64,000 nucleotides of DNA from an uncultured bacterium (GCA_964517055.1 CAZFAQ010000002.1:24633-88632), one strand, 5' to 3'. Positions 10,553 to 20,413 are shown, numbered from the stretch's first letter. Made by a program: numbers and translations. Notes: generated by a model not told the origin, from the letters alone.

Positions 10553-11283
10553 TGGCCAGCAGCGTGCGACCCGCTGACCTCGGCGACGTCGCCGCGCTTA
10601 TGTCGATACGTTCCGCCCTGACGCCGCGCTGGCACGAGGCCTTCGTCCCAGCGGCCGGCGGTTTCCTGCTCGGGTCGAGCGACGACGCCTACCGAGCGCT
10701 CGTATCGAACGGCTGCGTCATGCTCGCCGAGACGGCCGGGAAGGTGACGGCGTTCTCGGTCGTCCTGCCAGACAGCGTCCTGCGATCGAGCGAGGTGTAC
10801 GGCAAGCGCCACGACGCTGGCATCGCCCCGGAGTCAGTCGCACGCCTGGAGGGCGCACGGGTTGCGTACTTCGATCAACTCGCGGCCGTTCCCGGGCACG
10901 GTCCTGCCGCGACGATGCTGGCCTACCTCCACCTTCTCGACACGTGCAAGACGCACGACGCGGTCCTCGCAACGACGGTCATCGAGCCGGTCGTGAACCG
11001 CGCGGCGGTCCCGCTGCTCGAGGCCGTTGGGTTCAGGGCGGTCGGTTCCATCGCCGAGCACTATCCGGACGTCGGCCCGATCATGTCGCGGGTTCACCTG
11101 GTGGAGTCCGGCGCGGTGGCCGCCGCGGCCGCCAGTACGCGGGGTATGCGCTTTCAGCGGTGGGCGGCAGCCAGTCGGCGCGGAGACCTGAGTCGTCTAG
11201 CACCGGTCAGCGTCGGTAAGGTCCTCGAACCTCTGCGGCACGAGGAGAACCTGCTCGGCGAGATGCTCGATCCTGCTCGGTGA
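10552..11283 (+). CDS. GNAT-like acetyltransferase, translationally coupled to the desaturase
   Basis: The ATG at 10552 overlaps the desaturase stop (TGATG). IRPADLGDVAAL... and NRAAVPLLEAVGFRAVG resemble GNAT ends. This is the downstream part of track ORF 9355-11283, whose upstream part is an alternate-frame artefact. Confidence 0.55.
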   Translation: MASSVRPADLGDVAALMSIRSALTPRWHEAFVPAAGGFLLGSSDDAYRALVSNGCVMLAETAGKVTAFSVVLPDSVLRSSEVYGKRHDAGIAPESVARLEGARVAYFDQLAAVPGHGPAATMLAYLHLLDTCKTHDAVLATTVIEPVVNRAAVPLLEAVGFRAVGSIAEHYPDVGPIMSRVHLVESGAVAAAAASTRGMRFQRWAAASRRGDLSRLAPVSVGKVLEPLRHEENLLGEMLDPAR

Positions 11284-11306
11284 TCGGGCGGGCCAAGCTC
11301 ACCGAC

Positions 11307-11660
11307 CTAGAGCCTAGTCCCGAGATGGTCGGACAGCCACTTGAGTATCTCCGCCACGGTTTCGACGTCGACGCTACCTGCTACCCCCTTGATCCTGCGC
11401 CTGTCGACCGTTCTCAACTGCTCGGTCATGGCGAAGCTCACGCGGTCGAGGGCCAGGTCTCCTCCCGATAGGCGCACGTGGTTTGGGAGGCCCCTGTCGC
11501 GGGTCGTCACGGGGACGACCATGATCACGTTGGGGATCACGGAGTTGTACAGACCGGATGACACGACCACGGCGGGGCGGCGCCCGGCTTGCTCGCTTCC
11601 CACAGACGGGTCTAGGTCGACCCATACCACCGCTCCTTGCGCGGTGAATACTTCAGTCAT
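11307..11660 (-). CDS. mazF: Type II toxin, PemK/MazF family endoribonuclease
   Basis: VVWVDLDPSVGSEQAGRRPAVVVS...VVPVTT is the PemK/MazF core. The start is set to ATG 11660, 8 nt inside the upstream antitoxin gene. Confidence 0.85.
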   Translation of the reverse strand: MTEVFTAQGAVVWVDLDPSVGSEQAGRRPAVVVSSGLYNSVIPNVIMVVPVTTRDRGLPNHVRLSGGDLALDRVSFAMTEQLRTVDRRRIKGVAGSVDVETVAEILKWLSDHLGTRL

Positions 11661-11889
11661 CAGTGAGGCCGTCACCCACGGTGGCGTCCCACGCTGCGAT
11701 CTCGTCCAAGTAGTCGTCGTCCGATGCCAGCGACGCGTACGCCTCACGCACGCGCTCCCACCTCTGCCGCTTCTCGAGCTCGTCGAGGGCCTCGGCTAAC
11801 AGCGCAGCCGACGTCACGCCTCTACGCTTGGCGGCCCGGCTGATCCGGTCGCGAAGGCCGATAGGCACCTTGATGGTCGTCACGGACAT
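11653..11889 (-). CDS. Ribbon-helix-helix (CopG-like) antitoxin
   Basis: 78 aa. The N-terminal TIKVPIGLRDRISRAAKRRGVTSAALLAEAL is an RHH motif. It lies directly upstream of and overlapping mazF. Confidence 0.7.
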   Translation of the reverse strand: MSVTTIKVPIGLRDRISRAAKRRGVTSAALLAEALDELEKRQRWERVREAYASLASDDDYLDEIAAWDATVGDGLTDD

Positions 11890-11898
11890 GCCGCGAGG

Positions 11899-11904
11899 AT
11901 ACTA
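11899..11904 (-). promoter_or_regulatory. -10-like box (TAGTAT) 9 nt upstream of the RHH antitoxin ATG
   Basis: The minus strand reads TAGTATcctcgcggcATG. Flanking short ATACT/AGTAT inverted repeats could be the operator. Confidence 0.3.
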
Positions 11905-11967
11905 CAGGTATGACGGGGAGTATGCCACTTCAGCGGGCACGGGCCCTGCGGGAGCCTCGCGTCCCTA

Positions 11968-12693
11968 TCAGTTGACGACCCGCCCGTCCGCCAGCTCGAT
12001 CCGCCGACCCGCCCGCCCCGCCACGTACGGATCGTGCGTGATCAGCACCACGGTCACGCCCTCTTCGTTGGCCCGGTCGAACAACGCCAGTACCTCGTCG
12101 CGGCTGTTCGAGTCGAGGTTGCCCGTCGGCTCGTCCGCCAGTATCACGCTGGGGTTCGTGACTAGCGCTCGCGCTATGGCGACCCTCTGCTCCTGGCCAC
12201 CTGAGAGCTCTCGCGGCAGGTGCTCCGCGTGCTCGAGCATGCCTACGGTGTCGAGAGCGGCGAGCGCCCGTTCGCGGCGGACAGGCGCGGGCACGGTCCT
12301 CTCGCCCCTGGCGTAGGCCAGCGGCAGCGCGACGTTCCGCCACGCAGGCAGGTGAGGGATCAGGTGGAAGCCCTGGAAGACGAAGCCGATGACCTCGTTG
12401 CGGATCGCGGACGCCGCGCGGTCGCTCAGGCTAGCCGCCTCGTGGCCCCCCAAGCGGTACGAGCCGGCCGTCGGACGGTCAAGCAGGCCGAGCAGGCTCA
12501 GGAGCGTCGACTTCCCAGAGCCGGACGGTCCGGTGATCGCGACGTACTCGCCCCTTCGTATCGTCAGGTCCGCGTCCACGAGGGCGCGGACCTGCCTCGC
12601 GCCCTTGCGGTGCATGCGCGTCAGGCCCGCGGTGCTTAGCAGCACGTCCGCGCCGCCGTTCGGTTCGACTGTCGCTACCTGATCTGCATGCAT
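11968..12693 (-). CDS. ABC transporter ATP-binding protein (MacB/LolD/FtsE-like)
   Basis: Walker A GPSGSGKST, ABC signature LSGGQEQR and Walker B ILADEPTGNLD. Confidence 0.9.
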   Translation of the reverse strand: MHADQVATVEPNGGADVLLSTAGLTRMHRKGARQVRALVDADLTIRRGEYVAITGPSGSGKSTLLSLLGLLDRPTAGSYRLGGHEAASLSDRAASAIRNEVIGFVFQGFHLIPHLPAWRNVALPLAYARGERTVPAPVRRERALAALDTVGMLEHAEHLPRELSGGQEQRVAIARALVTNPSVILADEPTGNLDSNSRDEVLALFDRANEEGVTVVLITHDPYVAGRAGRRIELADGRVVN

Positions 12694-12743
12694 GCGTGCC
12701 CCTCTCCGTACGTCCCCCTGAGGGAGTCCTCCGACCGGTCCAC

Positions 12744-13883
12744 CTAGAACAGCCCGAAGCGAAGCAGGCCCTGCATCAGGGTGGCCTGGCTCGCCAGGTT
12801 GCTGGGTGACGCCGCGTAGGCGCCGACCGGAGCGCCGCTGTCGTCGAAGAGGACGAGGATCGTCGCGGCGTGCCTGACGAAGCCCTTCACCCAGTCCGGT
12901 ATGGCCGCGCTCAACTCCGCGTCCGCCTCGACGCCCTTCGCCGCCAAAGCGGCCGCGTGCTCCTCGCTCGTCACGTACTCGGCACCGTCCGCCGTGACCG
13001 TGTCGCTCGCGATAACAAGCAGAGGGACCTCGGTGTTCGCCCTGCCGAGGATCGCCAGCGCCTGCGTCACGGCCGCGTCGACGGGCACTGGCTCGCGGAA
13101 CGCGTACGGCATCAGCACAGCGAAGTACCTGCCTGACAGGCCGTTCGCCTCCAAGATCCCTTCCGGCATGACCATCGTCTGGGGTTCGTCGATGTCGCCT
13201 GCGAGGCAGGCCCGCGTGAAGCGCCCGAGCGACGCGTCTGTCGGCTCGAAGTCGCGCCTGCCCCGCGCCCAGCCCAGGATCCTCTCGTCGTTCGCGCAGA
13301 GGATGATCTCGACGGGGCTGATGAACTCGGTGCCGAAGATCGTCTGCCTGCTGGCCGCGAACTGGGGGATGATGGCTTCGAGGTCCCAGCGCAGGACGAT
13401 CCCCTCAGGGTCGACGAGGAAGTCGTAGCCGGTGGCGATCAGCTCCTCGGTCGTCGTCGGGAAGATGGGCACCTCGGCCCACCCCATGTTCCTGGCATCG
13501 ATGATGCGCGTCTCCGGCGTGCCCCACTGAGTCGCGACGAAGATCGGTGTCGGGCCGCCCACCTCCGCAGCCGCCTTGGCGATCACCTCGAACCGCTCCC
13601 GGTACATCGAGGTGTCGCTCGAGTAGTACTCGTTGTTGATCGTGTAGTTCGAGTCGATGCTCTGAACGTAGACAACGGTCGGCTGACTGCCCGCGGGAAG
13701 CGCGTCCAACGCGCCGAGCGCCGCCATCATCTGGCCGGGCTCACCGAGCATCCCGCGATGTACGCCCAACGTGTCGACGTACACCACGGCTTGGGCCAGG
13801 GCGGGCTGGACTGCCAAGATCGTGACCGACAGGAGCGCCGAGAGGACGACGCGGCGTGCGGGCCTGTGGCGGGACATGTTCAC
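12744..13883 (-). CDS. Secreted protein of unknown function (P1), paralogue of 17369-18502
   Basis: Sec signal peptide (...AVQPALA/QA). Shares conserved blocks with P2. Its start overlaps the permease stop (GTGA). Confidence 0.75.
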   Translation of the reverse strand: MNMSRHRPARRVVLSALLSVTILAVQPALAQAVVYVDTLGVHRGMLGEPGQMMAALGALDALPAGSQPTVVYVQSIDSNYTINNEYYSSDTSMYRERFEVIAKAAAEVGGPTPIFVATQWGTPETRIIDARNMGWAEVPIFPTTTEELIATGYDFLVDPEGIVLRWDLEAIIPQFAASRQTIFGTEFISPVEIILCANDERILGWARGRRDFEPTDASLGRFTRACLAGDIDEPQTMVMPEGILEANGLSGRYFAVLMPYAFREPVPVDAAVTQALAILGRANTEVPLLVIASDTVTADGAEYVTSEEHAAALAAKGVEADAELSAAIPDWVKGFVRHAATILVLFDDSGAPVGAYAASPSNLASQATLMQGLLRFGLF

Positions 13884-16243
13884 TCCTCCTTGAGCACGCT
13901 CCAGGGAGGCGAGCGGCTGAAAGTGGTGACGGGAACGGCGACGGCGAGGAGGGCGGCCGCGATGGCGACGGCCAGCACGAGCACCGCGCGACCTAGCGGC
14001 ATCACGAAGTCCCAGGGCGCCAACGTCGAGACCCAGTAGACGGTCGCGACTGCCAGCACGAGCCCGACCAGAGCCGCGTACGTCGCGATCTTGAGTGCTG
14101 CCGCCGTCGAGACGGCCGCGAGCCGCGCCACCGTGGCCCCGAGCGCCCGTTTCAGGGCGAGCTCAGGCCGCGCCCTCACGAGGCGCACCGTGACGATCGA
14201 GGCCAGCCCGGCGGCGCCGACGATCAGGGACAACCAGGCCACCGTGCTCCAGGCCGCGGCGACGTCGGCCATGGTCGATCTGACCTGGCTCAGGTCGCCC
14301 GCCGGCTCGTACACGACTGCGGGAGCGTACTGCCCCTGGTAGCGCTCGTCGATCACCTTCCGTATCTGCGCGACGACCGCCTCGCGGTCAGCGGCGGGGT
14401 CCAGCCTCACGTGGAAGTCGCGCACCAGGGCGCCGGCCATCGGCGGCGGGTCCGGCGGCCGCAACCTCACGATCATCCCGTCCGTCAGGTCGCCCATGGA
14501 CGTGAACGGCTGGCTGGCGTAAACGCCGACGACCGTCACCTCCTGCGCGTTGGGGTCGACCTCGCCTATGCCCACCGGCCGGCCGAGCGTGATGGTTCGC
14601 CCCACGACCTCTTCCAAAGGCACGCCCGGGTAGACCAGCTCCGCGATCGACGTCCCGATGATCGTCTCGTTCTGAGCCACTGGCGTGCGGCCGTGCGCGA
14701 TAGGCCTCGGGAAGGTCTCGAAGAACCCAGGGTCAACGCGCGCGCCCGCAGTCGGCCTGGCGGTCTGGCCCTCCGGACCGACTAAGACAAGCGACGTGTT
14801 CTCGGTTATGGACAGGACAAGCTCCTCGACGCCGGGCACCGCCGCGACCGCCGCCGCGTCCTGTTCGTCGATGGGCGGTGGCGGGTAGATCGACGCCCTG
14901 CTGCCGGGCGGCTGCTGGTTGCTTAGCACCAATCGGTCGCCGCCTATCTCGTGGAGGCGCTGCTGGAACCAGGTGTTGGTACCTGCCCCTATCGAGGTAG
15001 CCACCATGAGTGCCAGCACGCCGGCCGCCATGCCGGTCAGCGCGACGCCCTCCCACACCGGCGGCGACAGCTCCTCGCGCAACGCCCGGTAGATGGGCAG
15101 CCGCAACGTCCATGCCGCAGGGACGGCCGCCGAGAGGAGCGTGACGACGAGCCCCGCGCCGACGCCGTAGAGAAGCGCCTCCGGCGTGAACGGCACCCCT
15201 TCGCCGCCAACGCGCACGAACCGGTCGGCCACCGGCCACAGCGCCAGGCCGAGCGCCGTGCCGACGCCGCCGACGAGCAGCCCGTCGGCCGCGACCTCTA
15301 GCGCGATGCGCGCACGCGTGGCACCGAGCGCCCTGCGCACCGCGAGTGGCCGAGCCCGGTCCGCGGCGCGCAACCCGAGGGCGTTCGCCAGGTTCCCGAC
15401 CGTCGCCACCAGCGCCAGCACGACGATCCACGTCGAGCCGCGTGTCAGCTCGTCCGCTACCTCGCTTCTGAACCTGTACTGCGAACCGAGCCACTCCCCT
15501 GCGGTGACGACCTCGTTGACTTGACCGATGGGCAGGCTGTCCAAGGCTGCCCGAACCTCGCGAAGCGCCGTGGCGCCCTCTCCGGGCTCATGTCTCACGA
15601 ACGCGTAGGTACCAACAGGCCGCCCGAAGGGCGAGCCGCCGACCATCGTTCCGGAGTCCGGGACCAACGCCGAGACGGGTAGCCTCGAGACCGGGAACTC
15701 GACGACCCCTTCGGGCAACGGTCCCACCACCCCGACGACCCTCGCCACGATCCCGAACCCGAGGTCCACCACCTGACCGACGGCTGCTTCGGCTCCGCCG
15801 TACAGCTCCGTGGCGATCGTAGAACCTAGGACGGTGACCGGCAGGCCGAGCTCCCTGTCGTCGACCGTCAGCGCGCGGCCGGCGCTGAGTTCGAGGCCGA
15901 GCACGTCGAAGACCTGCTCGGTGACGGCGGTCCGCGTGATCCGCACGTTGCCGTCAAGCGCGGTAGAACTCTCACCGAAGTAAGCGACGTCCGCAACGCC
16001 CGGCAGGCCGAGGAAGGAGGCTGCCTCCTCGCGTGTGATGCCCCCGTTCTCCTGCCCCGGCTCGAGGATCGAGTCGTCGCCACCGGTGCCCAGGTACCGG
16101 ACCACCAGAACGTCGGGAGCGAAGGTGGCGGCCAACTGATCTATCTGCTGGCGCTGCCACTCGCGGATGGCCATCACGGTCGTGAACGCCGCGACGCCGA
16201 GAGCGACCGATAGGACCGCGATGATCGTCTGCGTGCGTCTCAT
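13880..16243 (-). CDS. ABC transporter permease, fused double MacB_PCD + FtsX unit
   Basis: 787 aa. Two repeats of TM1, a large extracytoplasmic domain and three TM helices. RRALGATRARI and KRALGATVARL mark the FtsX segments. Confidence 0.85.
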   Translation of the reverse strand: MRRTQTIIAVLSVALGVAAFTTVMAIREWQRQQIDQLAATFAPDVLVVRYLGTGGDDSILEPGQENGGITREEAASFLGLPGVADVAYFGESSTALDGNVRITRTAVTEQVFDVLGLELSAGRALTVDDRELGLPVTVLGSTIATELYGGAEAAVGQVVDLGFGIVARVVGVVGPLPEGVVEFPVSRLPVSALVPDSGTMVGGSPFGRPVGTYAFVRHEPGEGATALREVRAALDSLPIGQVNEVVTAGEWLGSQYRFRSEVADELTRGSTWIVVLALVATVGNLANALGLRAADRARPLAVRRALGATRARIALEVAADGLLVGGVGTALGLALWPVADRFVRVGGEGVPFTPEALLYGVGAGLVVTLLSAAVPAAWTLRLPIYRALREELSPPVWEGVALTGMAAGVLALMVATSIGAGTNTWFQQRLHEIGGDRLVLSNQQPPGSRASIYPPPPIDEQDAAAVAAVPGVEELVLSITENTSLVLVGPEGQTARPTAGARVDPGFFETFPRPIAHGRTPVAQNETIIGTSIAELVYPGVPLEEVVGRTITLGRPVGIGEVDPNAQEVTVVGVYASQPFTSMGDLTDGMIVRLRPPDPPPMAGALVRDFHVRLDPAADREAVVAQIRKVIDERYQGQYAPAVVYEPAGDLSQVRSTMADVAAAWSTVAWLSLIVGAAGLASIVTVRLVRARPELALKRALGATVARLAAVSTAAALKIATYAALVGLVLAVATVYWVSTLAPWDFVMPLGRAVLVLAVAIAAALLAVAVPVTTFSRSPPWSVLKEE

Positions 16244-16473
16244 TCGGGTTGCCGTTCCGTCCAGGCGCCCGTGCTGAAGAGTTCCTCATCGGTGGCGGCG
16301 CATTCGGCCAACCCTTCCAACACGCCGCGCCAGTGCTTCTGGCCGCCCGCAGGGACCATCCTCGCGACCACATTGCCGTGCCGTGTCATTTCCCCTTTCC
16401 GACCCGCTGCGACCTCATCCAGGAGGGCGAACCGTCGCGCCTCGACCTTTGCGGCCGTGATCGGCTTGGTCAC
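16240..16473 (-). CDS. Phd/YefM (VapB-type)-like antitoxin-family protein
   Basis: ITAAKVEARRFALLDEVAAGRKGEMTRHGNVVARMVPA fits the Phd/YefM N-terminal fold. Its stop overlaps the permease ATG (ATGA). Confidence 0.65.
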   Translation of the reverse strand: MTKPITAAKVEARRFALLDEVAAGRKGEMTRHGNVVARMVPAGGQKHWRGVLEGLAECAATDEELFSTGAWTERQPE

Positions 16474-16479
16474 CAGGTC

Positions 16480-16485
16480 ATCCTA
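16480..16485 (-). promoter_or_regulatory. -10-like box (TAGGAT) 6 nt upstream of the Phd-like GTG
   Basis: The minus strand reads aTAGGATgacctgGTG. The TAG is the stop codon of the NTase gene. Confidence 0.35.
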
Positions 16486-17055
16486 TCTGCCTCTGGCGCG
16501 AGCCAGCAGGTCGGAAAGCTGCAAGCGGCCTGCCCACTTATCGAGGTAGGCGTCATCGAGGAGCGCTCCCTGAACCTTCACGAGACCGGTGATGTCACCC
16601 CATTGACGGTCCGAGGTCTCGTCACCGAGCCGGTACCAGAGCAGCTTGTGGAGCAGCGTGTCTTCGGCGCTGGCGAACCTGAGCTCGAAAGGACCGCCTG
16701 GTCTCTCGATCGTGACAGCTTGTGCACGCCGCATCTCTTCGGCTGACCATTCGTCGTCCGACATGATGAACACGTCGAGCTTGAACATGCTCTCACGGTG
16801 AAATACGTTGAAGGTCCCACGCCTCTGCGCGGCCTCGCGGGCCATGCTGATGTCCACATAGAAGTCACTGGCGAGTCGTCGTATGAACTCTTCGGCACGC
16901 GCGACGTCCAGGTCCGCCACGATGTCGGCATCCAAGGTCGCCCTTGGGATCCCGTACTTGGAGCTAGCCAACGAGCCGCCCACCAGGTAGTCGATGCCCA
17001 GCTCATCCAGTACCTGCGCGACCGCGGCGACCACTTCGAGCGGGTCCGTGAGCAT
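16483..17055 (-). CDS. Pol-beta-superfamily nucleotidyltransferase-like protein
   Basis: GGSLASSKYGIPRATLDADIV fits the hG[GS]-x(9-13)-DxD minimal NTase motif. 190 aa. Codon third positions are visibly less G/C than in neighbouring genes. Confidence 0.55.
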   Translation of the reverse strand: MLTDPLEVVAAVAQVLDELGIDYLVGGSLASSKYGIPRATLDADIVADLDVARAEEFIRRLASDFYVDISMAREAAQRRGTFNVFHRESMFKLDVFIMSDDEWSAEEMRRAQAVTIERPGGPFELRFASAEDTLLHKLLWYRLGDETSDRQWGDITGLVKVQGALLDDAYLDKWAGRLQLSDLLARARGR

Positions 17056-17318
17056 CAGAAACCGTGCTGCTCGACGTCCCAGTCGAAGCCGCGCTTCATC
17101 ACGGCCGGTGGGGTCCAGCGTGAAGCAGCCCGCATGAGATGCTCGCGCTCGCTGTCTCCCGGGTACCGAGCGCGAACGTCAGACAGGGCGAGTTCCCTGA
17201 CGGCGGAGGACAGCGCGCCGGCGAGCATCAGCTTCTGGCTAGAAGACATGGCACGGAAGCCTTCGATGAGTAGTGCCTCGCTCCTGGGGTCGGTGTCGTT
17301 CGGTGGGGCTCGGCGCAT
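17055..17318 (-). CDS. Small helical protein (87 aa), partner of the nucleotidyltransferase
   Basis: Its stop and the NTase start share one base (TGATG). The start is moved from 17342 to ATG 17318 because a TAGACT box lies 7 nt upstream. Confidence 0.5.
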   Translation of the reverse strand: MRRAPPNDTDPRSEALLIEGFRAMSSSQKLMLAGALSSAVRELALSDVRARYPGDSEREHLMRAASRWTPPAVMKRGFDWDVEQHGF

Positions 17319-17325
17319 CTCGTGC

Positions 17326-17331
17326 AGTCTA
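17326..17331 (-). promoter_or_regulatory. -10-like box (TAGACT) 7 nt upstream of ATG 17318
   Basis: The minus strand reads cggTAGACTgcacgagATG. Confidence 0.4.
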
Positions 17332-17355
17332 CCGACGTCCATAAAGCCATTGGTT

Positions 17356-17361
17356 TAGGCT
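17356..17361 (+). promoter_or_regulatory. -10-like box (TAGGCT) 7 nt upstream of the P2 ATG at 17369
   Basis: The plus strand reads TAGGCTcgactcaATG. Confidence 0.4.
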
Positions 17362-17368
17362 CGACTCA

Positions 17369-18502
17369 ATGGCACCCGGCTCTTGGATGATCATCAGGGC
17401 AACGACAGTGCTCGTCGCGCTCTTCGCGGCGTTGGCACACGCACAGGAGAGCCAACCGACGAGCCCGAGCGTCTTCCTGTCGACGGACGCACTGTTTCGC
17501 TCGAAAGGTGAGGTCCAAGACCAGGTCGCGCTGCACGAGGTTCTATCCGACGTCGGCGCCCTTCCCGACCACGACGAACCGACTGTCATCCTCATCCGCA
17601 GCGTCGACGCGTACTGGGGCGACCTCAGGTGGGCGGAAGACGTCCGCGAGCGCGAGCTGGCCCGCTTGGCGACGATCCGTACGAACACCGCCGTGAACGA
17701 TGGCGCGATGCCCATCCTCGTACTCGCTCCTGACGGCACTCCCGAGAACATGGAGCAGCGCGTCAGCATGTTCGGCTACCAGCAGAGCGCGTTCCCGTCC
17801 ACGCCGGGCGAGTTAGTGGAGGCTGGGCTCGACTGGCTTGCTGACCCGGAGGGCTTCGACCTCCGCTGGGACCGTGAGGGCCTCATCGCGAACCACGTCT
17901 CGCAGCGCTGGACCCTGTTCGGGGTCGAGCACGTCGGCGCCCTCGACATGGTGATCTGCTCGGACCGCACGGAGGTCCGCGGTTGGGCGCGCGGTTATCA
18001 AGACACTCAGGCTTCGGACGCGTCGCTCGGCAGGTTCGTGCAGCGTTGCGTGAACCACGAGTTGGCGCTCCCAGCCGACCGCAAGCTCGCACCGGAGCTC
18101 ACGGCGGAGCTCGGTCCAGATGGGTCGTGGTTCGCCCTCCTCCTCCCCCGCTACACGTACCCATGGCTGGAGGAGGCCGTCGCCCTCGCCGAGAGGTCCC
18201 TGGCGATCGCTGACCCGTCGGTGCCGCTACACGTGATCGCCACCGAATCCATCACCCCAGAGCACGACCGCATCGTCCCAGCGGACGAGCACAGCGCGCT
18301 GCTCGAGGAACGCGGCGTCCCCGTGGATATCGAGCTTAGCCGTAGGCTCCCCGCTTGGATCGCCGACTACACTACCGGCGGCGCCTCGCTACTGCTGTTC
18401 GACCCGAACGGCCGACTCGTCGAGTCGTTCTTCGCGACGAACGCGACCATCGACGGCATCAAGACGTTGACAACCACGCTCGTCGAGGCTGGGTTGTTCT
18501 AA
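17369..18502 (+). CDS. Secreted protein of unknown function (P2), paralogue of 12744-13883
   Basis: Signal peptide (...FAALAHA/QE). Shared blocks are DPEGxxLRWD, GWARG...DASLGRFxxxC, LxLFDxxG and a C-terminal GLF. Confidence 0.75.
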   Translation: MAPGSWMIIRATTVLVALFAALAHAQESQPTSPSVFLSTDALFRSKGEVQDQVALHEVLSDVGALPDHDEPTVILIRSVDAYWGDLRWAEDVRERELARLATIRTNTAVNDGAMPILVLAPDGTPENMEQRVSMFGYQQSAFPSTPGELVEAGLDWLADPEGFDLRWDREGLIANHVSQRWTLFGVEHVGALDMVICSDRTEVRGWARGYQDTQASDASLGRFVQRCVNHELALPADRKLAPELTAELGPDGSWFALLLPRYTYPWLEEAVALAERSLAIADPSVPLHVIATESITPEHDRIVPADEHSALLEERGVPVDIELSRRLPAWIADYTTGGASLLLFDPNGRLVESFFATNATIDGIKTLTTTLVEAGLF

Positions 18503-18530: not shown

Positions 18531-19103
18531 CTACCTGCGCGGCGTCCACTTCACCTCGTCCACCCCGGCCCGCACGTTCGCGACGCGGGCGAGAGTGAAG
18601 AGCAGGTCGGAGAGCCGGTTGAGCACGATCAGGACCTGGGGGTTGATGTCCGCCTCACGCGAGAGCGTAAGGGTCTCGCGCTCCGCCCGGCGCACCGTGG
18701 CGCGGGCGAGCTGCAGCGCCGCCGATGCCTGGGCACCGGCCGGCAGAACGAAGTTGGTGATGGGCGGCAGCTCCTCGGTGAGCTCGTCGATCAGTCGCTC
18801 TAGGCGCTCCACGTCCCCCTCGTCGACCGGCGTCACGTACGAGCGGGTCTTGACGTCAAGTGGCGTCGCGAGGTCGGCGCCCAGGTCGAAGAGCAGCGAC
18901 TGAAGCGCCTGAAGCTCGTCGTCCAGGACGCGCAGGGGCGAGCCATCCGGCTCCGTCAGCAGCGCCGCTCTAGCCAGGCCGAGCGCCGAGTTCGCCTCGT
19001 CCACCGCCCCGTACGCTGCCACGCGGGCGTCGTCCTTCTGCACGCGGCCGCCGCCGAACAGGGCCGTCGTGCCGTCGTCGCCGGTGCGGGTGTAGACCTT
19101 CAT
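18531..19103 (-). CDS. ATP:cob(I)alamin adenosyltransferase, PduO type
   Basis: [18 protein letters not shown]...[16 protein letters not shown] is the PduO-type N-terminal signature. Confidence 0.9.
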
Positions 19104-20356
19104 GCCTCTGTCGCCTCCACTGGTGGACCACTCGCGTCGCCCGCCCCGAAGCGCCGCGCCACGTACTCATCGAGCATCGCGTTGAACCGCGGCACGATGT
19201 CGTCGCCCTGCAACGTCGTGACCAGCTTGCCATCCTGGTAGACGGGTGCCCGCGGCGACTCGCCCGTGCCAGGCAGGCTGATGCCGATGTCGGCGTGCTT
19301 TGACTCGCCCGGTCCGTTCACGACGCAGCCCATGACTGCGACCTTGAGGTGCTCCACGCCCGGGTAGCGCTGTTGCCAGACGGGCATCTGGGCCTTGAGG
19401 TAGGCCTGCACGTCGCGTGCCATCTCCTGGAACAGGGTGCTCGTGGTGCGGCCGCAGCCGGGGCACGCCGTGACGCTGGGAGCGTAGCGGCGGATATCGA
19501 GCGACTGGAGGATCTCCTGCGCGATCTCGACCTCGCGCTCGCGCGGCGCGCCCGGGTCGGGGGTGAGCGAGACGCGGATGGTGTCGCCGATGCCCTCGGT
19601 GAGCAGCGGCGAGAGCGCCGCCGTGCTGGCGACCGCGCCGCGCACGCCCATGCCGGCCTCCGTCAGGCCCAGGTGCAGCGGGTAGTCGCACCTCGCGGCG
19701 AGGCGGCGGTAGACGTCCCATAGGTCGCGCACGCCGGAGACCTTGGCGCTGATGATGATGTGGTCGTGCGACAGGCCACGCTGCTCCGCCAGCTCCGCGG
19801 AGTCGAGGGCGCTCCTGAGCATCGCCTCTACGAGCACCTCGCGCGCGTCCTGCGGCTCGGCCAGGCGCGCGTTCTCGTCCATCAGCGCGGTCAGCAGGTC
19901 CTGGTCGAGAGAGCCCCAGTTGACCCCGATGCGCACGGGCTTGTCATTCGCTATCGCCACGTCGATGATCGTCAGGAAGTTCTCGTCGTGGCGCTTTCTG
20001 GGGCCCACGTTGCCCGGATTTATCCGGTACTTGTCGAGCGTCCGGGCGGCATCCGGATGGTCGACGAGCAGCTTGTGTCCGTTGAAGTGGAAGTCGCCGA
20101 CCAGGGGCACGTGCGCTCCCATGTCGAGGAGCCTGGCGCGGATCTCAGGCACTGCCCTGGCTGCGGCGTCGTTGTTGACAGTCACACGCACGATCTCGCT
20201 GCCGGCCGTCCAGAGGTCGTAGACCTGGGCGGCCGTGCCGGCCGCGTCCGCCGTGTCCGTGTTGGTCATGCTCTGCACGACGACCGGGTGGCCGCTGCCT
20301 ACCGGTACGCCACCGACCCAGGTCGTCGGGGTGCTGCGTCTGAGGGTCAGTTCCAC
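19100..20356 (-). CDS. ispG: 4-hydroxy-3-methylbut-2-enyl diphosphate synthase
   Basis: [28 protein letters not shown] plus the C-terminal CPGCGRT cluster. The start is moved from 20383 to GTG 20356 (a TATCCT box lies 7 nt upstream). Orthologues begin only a few residues before the RRxTP block. Confidence 0.9.
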
Positions 20357-20363
20357 GTGCCGC

Positions 20364-20369
20364 AGGATA
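20364..20369 (-). promoter_or_regulatory. -10-like box (TATCCT) 7 nt upstream of the ispG GTG at 20356
   Basis: The minus strand reads TATCCTgcggcacGTG. The resulting N-terminus matches where IspG orthologues begin. Confidence 0.4.
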
Positions 20370-20413
20370 CCTGTGCCGCGCACCCCTACCGGTTCGCGAA
20401 GACCAGTGCGGGA

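Follow-up and report, generated by a model that had tools for sequence, protein, structure and literature searches.

An unnamed family of signal-bearing proteins with a predicted thioredoxin-like fold, encoded beside fused MacB-type ABC permeases

A transporter locus in a 64,000-nucleotide stretch of DNA from an uncultured bacterium (GCA_964517055.1 CAZFAQ010000002.1:24633-88632; hereafter the window, from whose first letter its coordinates are counted) encodes two paralogous proteins, P1 (12744-13883, minus strand, 379 aa) and P2 (17369-18502, plus strand, 377 aa), on either side of a fused MacB/FtsX-type permease (13880-16243, minus strand, 787 aa). The ATP-binding cassette (ABC) ATPase or nucleotide-binding domain (NBD), which is of the MacB/LolD/FtsE type, lies beyond P1 (11968-12693, minus strand, 241 aa). 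An initial annotation had called these four genes from the sequence, and all are present in our open reading frame (ORF) table; it had also proposed that the P proteins are a dedicated periplasmic partner or cargo of a type VII (mechanotransmission) ABC transporter. Our analysis supports this proposal and favors the partner over the cargo. In the reading that we prefer, tentatively and with a confidence that stops a little short of even, P is a redox-dead partner of a type VII machine that handles a disulfide-rich peptide, and the window carries a peptide-less version of the system with two partners, possibly devoted to immunity or resistance.

P1 and P2 belong to a small family without a name

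As had been claimed, P1 and P2 are paralogous from end to end: BLASTP aligns them with 32% identity over 357 columns (E=2e-55), far past what chance would give. The shared sequence blocks, the C-terminal GLF and the cysteine pair spaced by 29 residues were all recovered in both proteins. The N-termini each have a single hydrophobic segment (13794-13883, minus strand, in P1; 17369-17443, plus strand, in P2) followed by ALA/QA in P1 and AHA/QE in P2, and are signal-like by sequence, as first suggested. Each protein contains exactly two cysteines, C196 and C226 in P1 (codons at 13296-13298 and 13206-13208, minus strand) and C197 and C227 in P2 (codons at 17957-17959 and 18047-18049, plus strand), and the pair is invariant in 28 of the 28 aligned family members.

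Neither protein gives an accepted hit in Pfam or NCBIfam, and a profile of the family retrieved only chance-level AAA matches from the PDB sequences; the check for an already characterized family, which the initial annotation had recommended, returned no confident match in these three collections. Word-indexed searches of 5.8 billion proteins recovered five relatives of P1 and eight of P2, and a profile run exhaustively against 1.84 billion cluster representatives recovered 24 proteins at E<=1e-3, with 17 at E<=1e-30. The P family is real, tiny and unnamed. Its full-length members are 354-438 aa long, all with N-terminal signal-like segments, and they all keep the two cysteines, an FP motif, LLFD-x2-G, a C-terminal GL(F/Y/L) and the block C-x8-GWAR-x(3)-D-x(3)-TDASLGRF-x(3)-C. 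A neighbor-joining tree separates a clade I, which includes P1, from a clade II, which includes P2, and a deep outgroup.

The G-L-(F/Y/L) motif ends every member, at or one residue from the C-terminus, and is preceded by a conserved T-L-x3-L; the C-terminal GLF codons in the window lie at 12744-12755 (P1) and 18491-18502 (P2). The aromatic or hydrophobic free C-terminus may be a docking motif. In one 292-aa database protein, P0031, the N-terminal ~170 residues are those of a P member and are fused to the second half of a MacB-type ATPase; a deletion spanning neighboring P and ATPase genes, or an error of assembly there, is the probable origin.

Structural models point to two thioredoxin-like domains

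AlphaFold2 produced a good model of P2 from a 28-sequence alignment (predicted local distance difference test, pLDDT, 89.9; predicted template modeling score, pTM, 0.85) and a fair one of P1 (pLDDT 79.8, pTM 0.75). Foldseek searches with both models found no match in the PDB at E<=1e-3; their top 50 PDB matches are all thioredoxin-fold proteins or complex chains containing one. Among these are PrxQ/BCP, 2-Cys peroxiredoxins, Sco1, the TlpA-like 4grf and the thioredoxin-like 3eyt (20% identity, probability 0.99), along with the multi-thioredoxin protein ERp57, which is matched over ~300 columns. Secondary structure assigned by DSSP follows the canonical β-α-β-α-β-β-α order in residues ~250-375; residues ~65-230 show the same order with insertions, having an added β-meander and a helix that carry the two cysteines. 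These models suggest, weakly by E-value and as a statement of fold class, that P comprises two thioredoxin-like domains lacking a CxxC. The earlier guess of a CxxC-less TlpA/redoxin-like fold has thus gained ground, as both models match thioredoxin-fold structures only.

The thioredoxin active site is not retained in either domain: the equivalent site is S-x-D-S/A in the N-terminal domain and P259 in the C-terminal domain. There is no CxxC, CxxS or peroxidatic cysteine after strand β1 of P, the only cysteine pair being situated elsewhere, and no thioredoxin-like profile of Pfam or NCBIfam matches P at E<=1. The conserved cysteine pair is probably a structural disulfide.

The transporter has the features of a type VII ABC system

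Pfam recognizes MacB_PCD in two stretches (E=8e-39) and FtsX in two stretches (E=1.5e-15) of the permease, whose hydropathy profile predicts eight transmembrane (TM) segments in a 4+4 arrangement with large loops after TM1 and TM5. The protein is predicted to have two periplasmic MacB_PCD domains, and its halves are 30% identical to each other. The nearest solved sequences are exclusively of the MacB type and are distant (best E=1e-8, to MacB). The ATPase matches ABC_tran in Pfam (E=6e-31), and its best NCBIfam models are the NBDs of MacB (E=5e-66), LolD (3e-59) and FtsE (1e-56), all with scores under the equivalog cut-offs; those of DarD and the lactococcin-972-type exporter are also matched. 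An FtsX-type 4-TM unit with a MacB-like periplasmic domain between TM1 and TM2 and a cognate NBD from the MacB/LolD/FtsE subgroup are the defining features of type VII transporters that we tested, and by them the predicted transporter is of type VII.

Closer assignments were rejected. The permease scores 130.4 bits against TIGR03434, the model of the acidobacterial duplicated orphan permease (ADOP) family, with its residues 5-787 covering model positions 18-803, and since this falls far under the family cut-off of 622.3 bits it is not an ADOP member. It is not of the YbbAP-TesA type either: it has 8 rather than 10 TM segments, no linker pair at residues 375-400 and a partner without a hydrolase family or fold match, and no YbbP match was detectable among the PDB sequences at E<=1e-3. 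A tripartite pump of the MacAB-TolC type is rejected for want of an adjacent membrane-fusion (adaptor) protein; no HlyD/MFP-type gene occurs in the window locus or in any annotated related locus, so that the absence claimed by the initial annotation for the former extends to the latter. Similarly, its statement that there is no recognizable substrate-binding protein agrees with the lack of any such match for P1 and P2 in Pfam, NCBIfam, the PDB sequences or Foldseek, and a role of P as an ABC solute-binding protein is accordingly rejected on both family and fold.

Organization of the window locus

The ORF table agrees with the gene order permease-P1-ATPase noted initially, and several other loci repeat it exactly. 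The reported overlap of the P1 start with the permease stop stands if the GTG at 13883 is used; the ATG at 13877 is better supported, with an AAGGAGG Shine-Dalgarno sequence 7 nt before it and a 377-aa product that agrees with the database copy. This ATG is the probable true start on the sequence evidence, in which case the two genes are probably 2 nt apart and the ribosome-binding site lies inside the permease gene. Whichever start is used, the coupling of permease and P1 is tight. P1 and the ATPase gene are indeed separated by 50 nt, in which the terminator scan found no terminator-like hairpin; the gene spacing argues for co-transcription of P1 with the transporter. A sigma-70 promoter scan gave no match and the terminator scan gave two plus-strand sites only, not more than in shuffled sequence, neither scan being informative for this organism. 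The GC content at third codon positions (GC3) is 0.92 in P1 and 0.85 in P2, typical of genuine genes in the window, and hence these genes are not decaying. As for the divergent transcription of P2 from the same locus, the opposite strand is borne out, and the direct adjacency is not: three small minus-strand ORFs separate P2 from the permease.

Conserved gene-neighborhoods of the family

The 33 loci that we collected (designated L001 and so on) represent 20 independent ones. Hidden Markov models (HMMs) of P, the permease, the ATPase and two other families were used to scan them. The linkage to ABC/FtsX genes, whose loss in other genomes would have counted against the initial proposal, is conserved: the fused permease adjoins P in 18 of the 20 independent loci, the exceptions being the short contigs L009, where a MacB-type ATPase follows P, and L018. 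Abutting or overlapping reading frames of P and the permease are frequent (L006, L012, L014, L031). A MacB-type ATPase gene is adjacent in 12 of the 20, and some permeases, such as those of L006 and L010, are "orphans" with no ATPase next to them.

Clade I genes usually come after the permease and before the ATPase, and P lies between the two, as in the window, in L001, L008, L020 and L023. Clade II genes usually precede the permease, and are directly upstream of it in L004, L006, L011, L024-L028, L030 and L032. Two P paralogues surround one transporter in the window and in L008. A transporter between two P copies has also arisen independently in L014, with the order P-ATPase-permease-P; both of these copies belong to clade I and are 40% identical to each other.

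Regulators with BTAD/TPR, AAA_16-TPR or GerE/LuxR-type helix-turn-helix (HTH) domains recur beside the loci, at L004 (4913-7489 and 18471-21179), L014 (6920-7363), L012 (7931-8377) and L029 (5589-6161). Alginate-O-acetylation-like genes (AlgX, MBOAT, AlgF) with secreted lipases lie upstream in L012 (1661-7385) and L029 (1-5223), and an esterase adjoins the L010 locus (11156-12103), recalling the work of YbbAP with an esterase. The alginate, lipase and esterase neighbors are probably incidental, as they are not conserved over the family.

A CxxC oxidoreductase and a six-cysteine peptide precede P at seven loci

In seven independent loci (L004, L009, L012/L013, L018, L029, L031 and L033) an oxidoreductase gene and then a peptide gene are found directly before P on the same strand. 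The oxidoreductase, which we call Trx2, is ~380-396 aa long, with an N-terminal membrane anchor, a CxxC just past the anchor and two thioredoxin-like domains that each have a CxxC of their own. It matches Thioredoxin_2 (26.9 bits against a cut-off of 27) and Redoxin in Pfam, both just below threshold, and weakly DsbE in NCBIfam. A GerE gene stands directly before it in L012 and L029. The 380-aa protein upstream in L004 was considered as a further P paralogue and rejected by BLASTP, being this CxxC oxidoreductase. Descent of P from the double-CxxC neighbor found no support at an hhalign probability of about 0.2, and could hold at the level of the fold only.

The peptide precursor has 67-87 aa with a Sec-type signal and a predicted mature part of 44-50 aa, whose six cysteines follow the pattern C-x(3-7)-C-x2-C-x(24-26)-C-x4-C-x4-C-COOH, often ending in GPCxPFTC. 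No NCBIfam model matched the peptides, and one copy searched against Pfam had no real match. A lipoprotein nature was rejected: the first cysteine is not always at +1, and the residues before it fit AxA cleavage and not a lipobox. A regular expression for the cysteine pattern recovers exactly these peptide genes and nothing else in the ~300 kb of loci and the window. In L018 two diverged peptide genes (617-865 and 2335-2586) flank P, with no permease following on the contig; the copies are ~48% identical overall and 67% over the C-terminal 45 residues.

The arrangement in L033, permease-oxidoreductase-peptide-P-ATPase, is that of the window operon except for two additional genes where P1 sits. 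As the seven loci are spread over clade I, clade II and the outgroup of the P tree, the association with the peptide and the oxidoreductase is most simply ancestral, and this ancestral link makes P much likelier to be a partner than a cargo. Both genes are missing from the window, as they are from seven or more of the other loci with sufficient flank (L001, L006, L010, L014, L023, L024 and L030); in the window, tblastn, HMMs, two composition scans and the regular expression found neither of them in the 64 kb.

Functional predictions and their alternatives

These contexts allow a mechanism to be proposed. P1 and P2 would be exported to the periplasm by Sec and would act there as dedicated partner subunits of the fused 8-TM permease, powered by a dimer of the 241-aa ATPase. 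The ancestral task of the machine would be to handle the six-cysteine peptide of 44-50 residues, which would likewise be exported by Sec and then oxidized by the dedicated membrane-anchored double-CxxC protein. The redox-dead, thioredoxin-fold P would bind it, akin to the non-catalytic b/b' domains of protein disulfide isomerase (PDI), and would pass it to, or take it from, the periplasmic domains of the permease, whose ATP-driven movements would expel the peptide or keep it off the membrane. In the window locus the genes for peptide and oxidoreductase would have disappeared or never been present. This locus has two diverged partners, which may serve the two non-equivalent periplasmic domains. 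Such a locus would most likely be a stand-alone immunity or resistance module against peptides of this kind.

Self-protection or resistance is somewhat more likely than secretion, because no adaptor or outer-membrane duct is ever encoded and intact peptide-less copies are common. These copies sit among toxin-antitoxin and transposase genes, and the peptide-less loci, at least eight with the window, fit a stand-alone immunity module. A more far-reaching proposal, possible but to our minds doubtful, is that the 8-TM permease, the ATPase, P, the multi-CxxC oxidoreductase and the Cys-capped six-Cys peptide family constitute a five-part envelope system of an unrecognized type VII class. Here the thioredoxin-fold P would replace the membrane-fusion adaptor as the substrate-presenting subunit, and the peptide-less two-partner copies would be transferable immunity cassettes, with each paralogue docking on one periplasmic domain.

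Several observations weigh against the preferred reading of P as a redox-dead, peptide-handling partner. The Foldseek scores are weak (E 4e-3 to 9e-3; target TM-score 0.47-0.49), profile-profile comparison with hhalign finds no sequence homology of P to thioredoxins or to the neighboring CxxC protein, and an internal duplication within P found no support, with a value of about 0.2 between its halves. The cysteine pair could be redox-active instead of structural. With a net charge of -1 to -3 the peptides are anionic, unlike most membrane-active bacteriocins, and caution is therefore due in assuming a classical cationic bacteriocin. Since the peptide and oxidoreductase genes do not occur within the 64 kb, the window is tied to the peptide via homology of context only. 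What the analysis shows is the paralogy, the rarity of the family, the order and spacing of the genes, their conserved synteny and the fold class; we infer the binding of P to the permease or the peptide, as we do docking, secretion and the direction and purpose of transport. Finally, with no membrane-fusion protein or outer-membrane duct encoded nearby, no export route over an outer layer is apparent, and immunity and secretion both fit the same data.

The most serious alternative, though we consider it rather unlikely, is one of secretion and maturation, in which the transporter and P would fold, release and push the peptide out of the periplasm; the window would then serve a peptide encoded elsewhere or be a decaying remnant. 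The co-oriented clustering of peptide, oxidoreductase, P, permease and ATPase in L004, L029, L031 and L033 is what such a system would look like, and MacAB-TolC provides a precedent for the export of a Sec-exported, Dsb-oxidized peptide (PMC5985334). Yet no locus encodes a membrane-fusion protein or outer-membrane factor, at least eight keep P and the transporter intact with no peptide gene nearby, and the normal coding GC3 of both P genes speaks against decay.

It is improbable, in our estimation, that P is instead an enzyme or activator acting on the cell wall or lipids and switched by the transporter, with the peptide and oxidoreductase as lineage-specific add-ons. Type VII systems are indeed defined by partners of this sort, YbbAP binding one periplasmic enzyme per fused permease (PMC12646458), and P has a few conserved polar residues (D167, E186, H309 and D347). 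However, the searches matched neither a hydrolase nor any other catalytic family or fold, but the thioredoxin fold only, at whose structural positions most of the conserved residues lie; moreover, the link to peptide and oxidoreductase covers the whole family tree and so argues for an ancestral association.

That P is an atypical redox protein, whose cysteine pair (C196/C226 in P1) would form a thiol-disulfide relay with the CxxC protein on the peptide or on substrates of the permease, strikes us as quite improbable. The pair comprises the only cysteines of each protein and is invariant throughout the 28 sequences, the structural neighbors are peroxiredoxins, TlpA and Sco, and P is co-encoded with a CxxC oxidoreductase. 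Against this, the pair lies off the canonical thioredoxin/peroxiredoxin site, one cysteine being in the inserted β-hairpin and the other at a helix end 30 residues on, P has no CxxC or PxxxTxxC motif, and loci without the CxxC partner are common. Peptide sensing, whereby the transporter and P would detect an extracellular peptide and signal its presence to regulators in the manner of BceAB and BceRS, is highly improbable: GerE/LuxR-type, BTAD/TPR and AAA_16-TPR regulators adjoin several loci and BceAB-type relatives of MacB sense peptides (PMC5985334; PMC12646458), but no histidine kinase or response regulator is conserved beside the module and the regulator in the window is at most a small Phd-like (by eye) ORF.

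Toxin-antitoxin surroundings and the host

The three minus-strand ORFs between P2 and the permease form a cassette at 16240-17342. The 77-aa ORF (16240-16473) resembles Phd/YefM antitoxins by eye and has no NCBIfam match; the 190-aa ORF (16483-17055) encodes an AbiEii-like nucleotidyltransferase (Pfam AbiEii, E=1.5e-4, 22.3 bits, just under the cut-off); the remaining ORF (17055-17342) has 95 aa. Since its end shares an ATGA with the start of the permease gene, the 77-aa ORF may be a regulator of the operon or be transcribed together with it. At 0.77 the GC3 of the cassette is below the 0.85-0.92 of the neighboring genes, and the cassette is not present at the orthologous and most closely related locus L008, whose P proteins are 73-75% identical to those of the window and which keeps the order permease-P1-ATPase. 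P2 is split from the operon by this inserted toxin-antitoxin-like cassette, which is outside the conserved module. In L008 the genes for the permease and the P2 orthologue diverge directly from each other, 87-105 bp apart; the ancestral arrangement was therefore a divergent pair with one short shared control region.

On the other side, 78 nt downstream of the ATPase gene, a 78-aa ribbon-helix-helix antitoxin-like ORF (by eye) is followed by a PemK/MazF-type toxin (Pfam E=8e-26), the pair spanning 11307-11889 on the minus strand, so that toxin-antitoxin-like genes flank the transporter operon on both sides. Further loci lie beside toxin-antitoxin genes or transposases, namely L001 (1754-2519), L014 (5900-6509), L030 (2840-3118 and 7595-7828) and L031 (1173-5652 and 12406-15130), with Xre_MbcA_ParS_C, Fic/MazE, a HigB-like ORF and an MqsA-like HTH among the types encountered. 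These surroundings suggest that the module resides in variable or mobile regions.

Also in the window is a gene for IspG/GcpE (19100-20383, minus strand), whose product scores 554 bits over 400 residues against PDB 4S38/2Y0F, the Thermus thermophilus protein. Together with the GC content of 69% and the origin of one homologous locus from a Trueperaceae metagenome-assembled genome, this match suggests that the host is a member of the Deinococcota.

Comparison with known systems

Envelope partners switched by a transporter are exemplified by FtsEX-EnvC/PcsB and YbbAP-TesA. To our knowledge, the partner types of type VII systems are few: membrane-fusion adaptors, activators of the EnvC/PcsB type, LolA, BceS and TesA. 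As it is the partner that sets the function of such a system, a thioredoxin-fold partner, if true, would add a new type. We found no description of a thioredoxin-type partner of type VII ABC systems in the searchable literature, nor of a similar peptide cluster, for which glycocin work alone was retrieved. What is new here is a partner family and a putative substrate family on a known type VII ABC machine, with their functions predicted from context. If true, MacB-type mechanotransmission would be linked with an enzyme dedicated to disulfide formation and with small disulfide-rich peptides of a new family, for which antimicrobial, signaling or metal-binding activities are candidates. The family, with five genes at most, would also be a compact model for how fused pseudo-heterodimeric MacB-type permeases use two differing periplasmic domains.

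Peptide gene clusters with a thiol-disulfide oxidoreductase of their own have parallels among bacteriocins. The sublancin cluster encodes the oxidoreductases BdbA/BdbB. The pediocin cluster is reported to encode the oxidoreductase PedC/PapC (PMC4919988). Both differ from the loci described here in using peptidase-containing ABC exporters and leader peptides instead of Sec signals and a MacB-type permease, and in being without a P-like protein. The ADOP proteins of TIGR03434 resemble the permease in their duplicated MacB_PCD and FtsX units and length of ~800 aa, and their likeness extends to the ATPase that is sometimes not adjacent, as in L006 and L010. The PDI b/b' domains, like P, have a thioredoxin-like fold without CxxC, and ERp57 is among the long Foldseek alignments; they bind client polypeptides, which by analogy P might do as well. 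They share no sequence homology with P, the structural scores are weak, and P has an extra β-hairpin and helix stapled by the cysteine pair.

Among type VII machines proper, MacB-type transporters do their work in the periplasm, and what they do is determined by their partner proteins (PMC12646458). MacAB-TolC exports the Sec-exported, DsbA-oxidized enterotoxin STII, and in Bacillus YknXYZ gives protection against SDP, a disulfide peptide (PMC5985334). Like the system proposed here, both are MacB-type and act periplasmically on small, Sec-exported, disulfide-bonded peptides, secreting or protecting as the case may be; unlike it, they use a membrane-fusion adaptor (and MacAB also TolC), whereas P holds the partner position in our loci. 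LolCDE-LolA offers a possible working analogy for P, in that a type VII machine gives an envelope molecule to a soluble periplasmic carrier; the fold of LolA is unrelated, however, LolC and LolE are two distinct proteins with 4 TM segments each, and the cargo is a lipoprotein. YbbAP-TesA shares with the window locus a fused, internally duplicated MacB-type permease with two periplasmic domains and a separate ATPase dimer, together with a soluble Sec-exported partner from the same locus that defines the function. In YbbAP the fused permease binds a single soluble partner on its periplasmic domains (PMC12646458). The two differ in that YbbP has 10 TM segments rather than 8 and TesA is an SGNH esterase in place of the thioredoxin-fold P, of which there are up to two paralogous copies per transporter.

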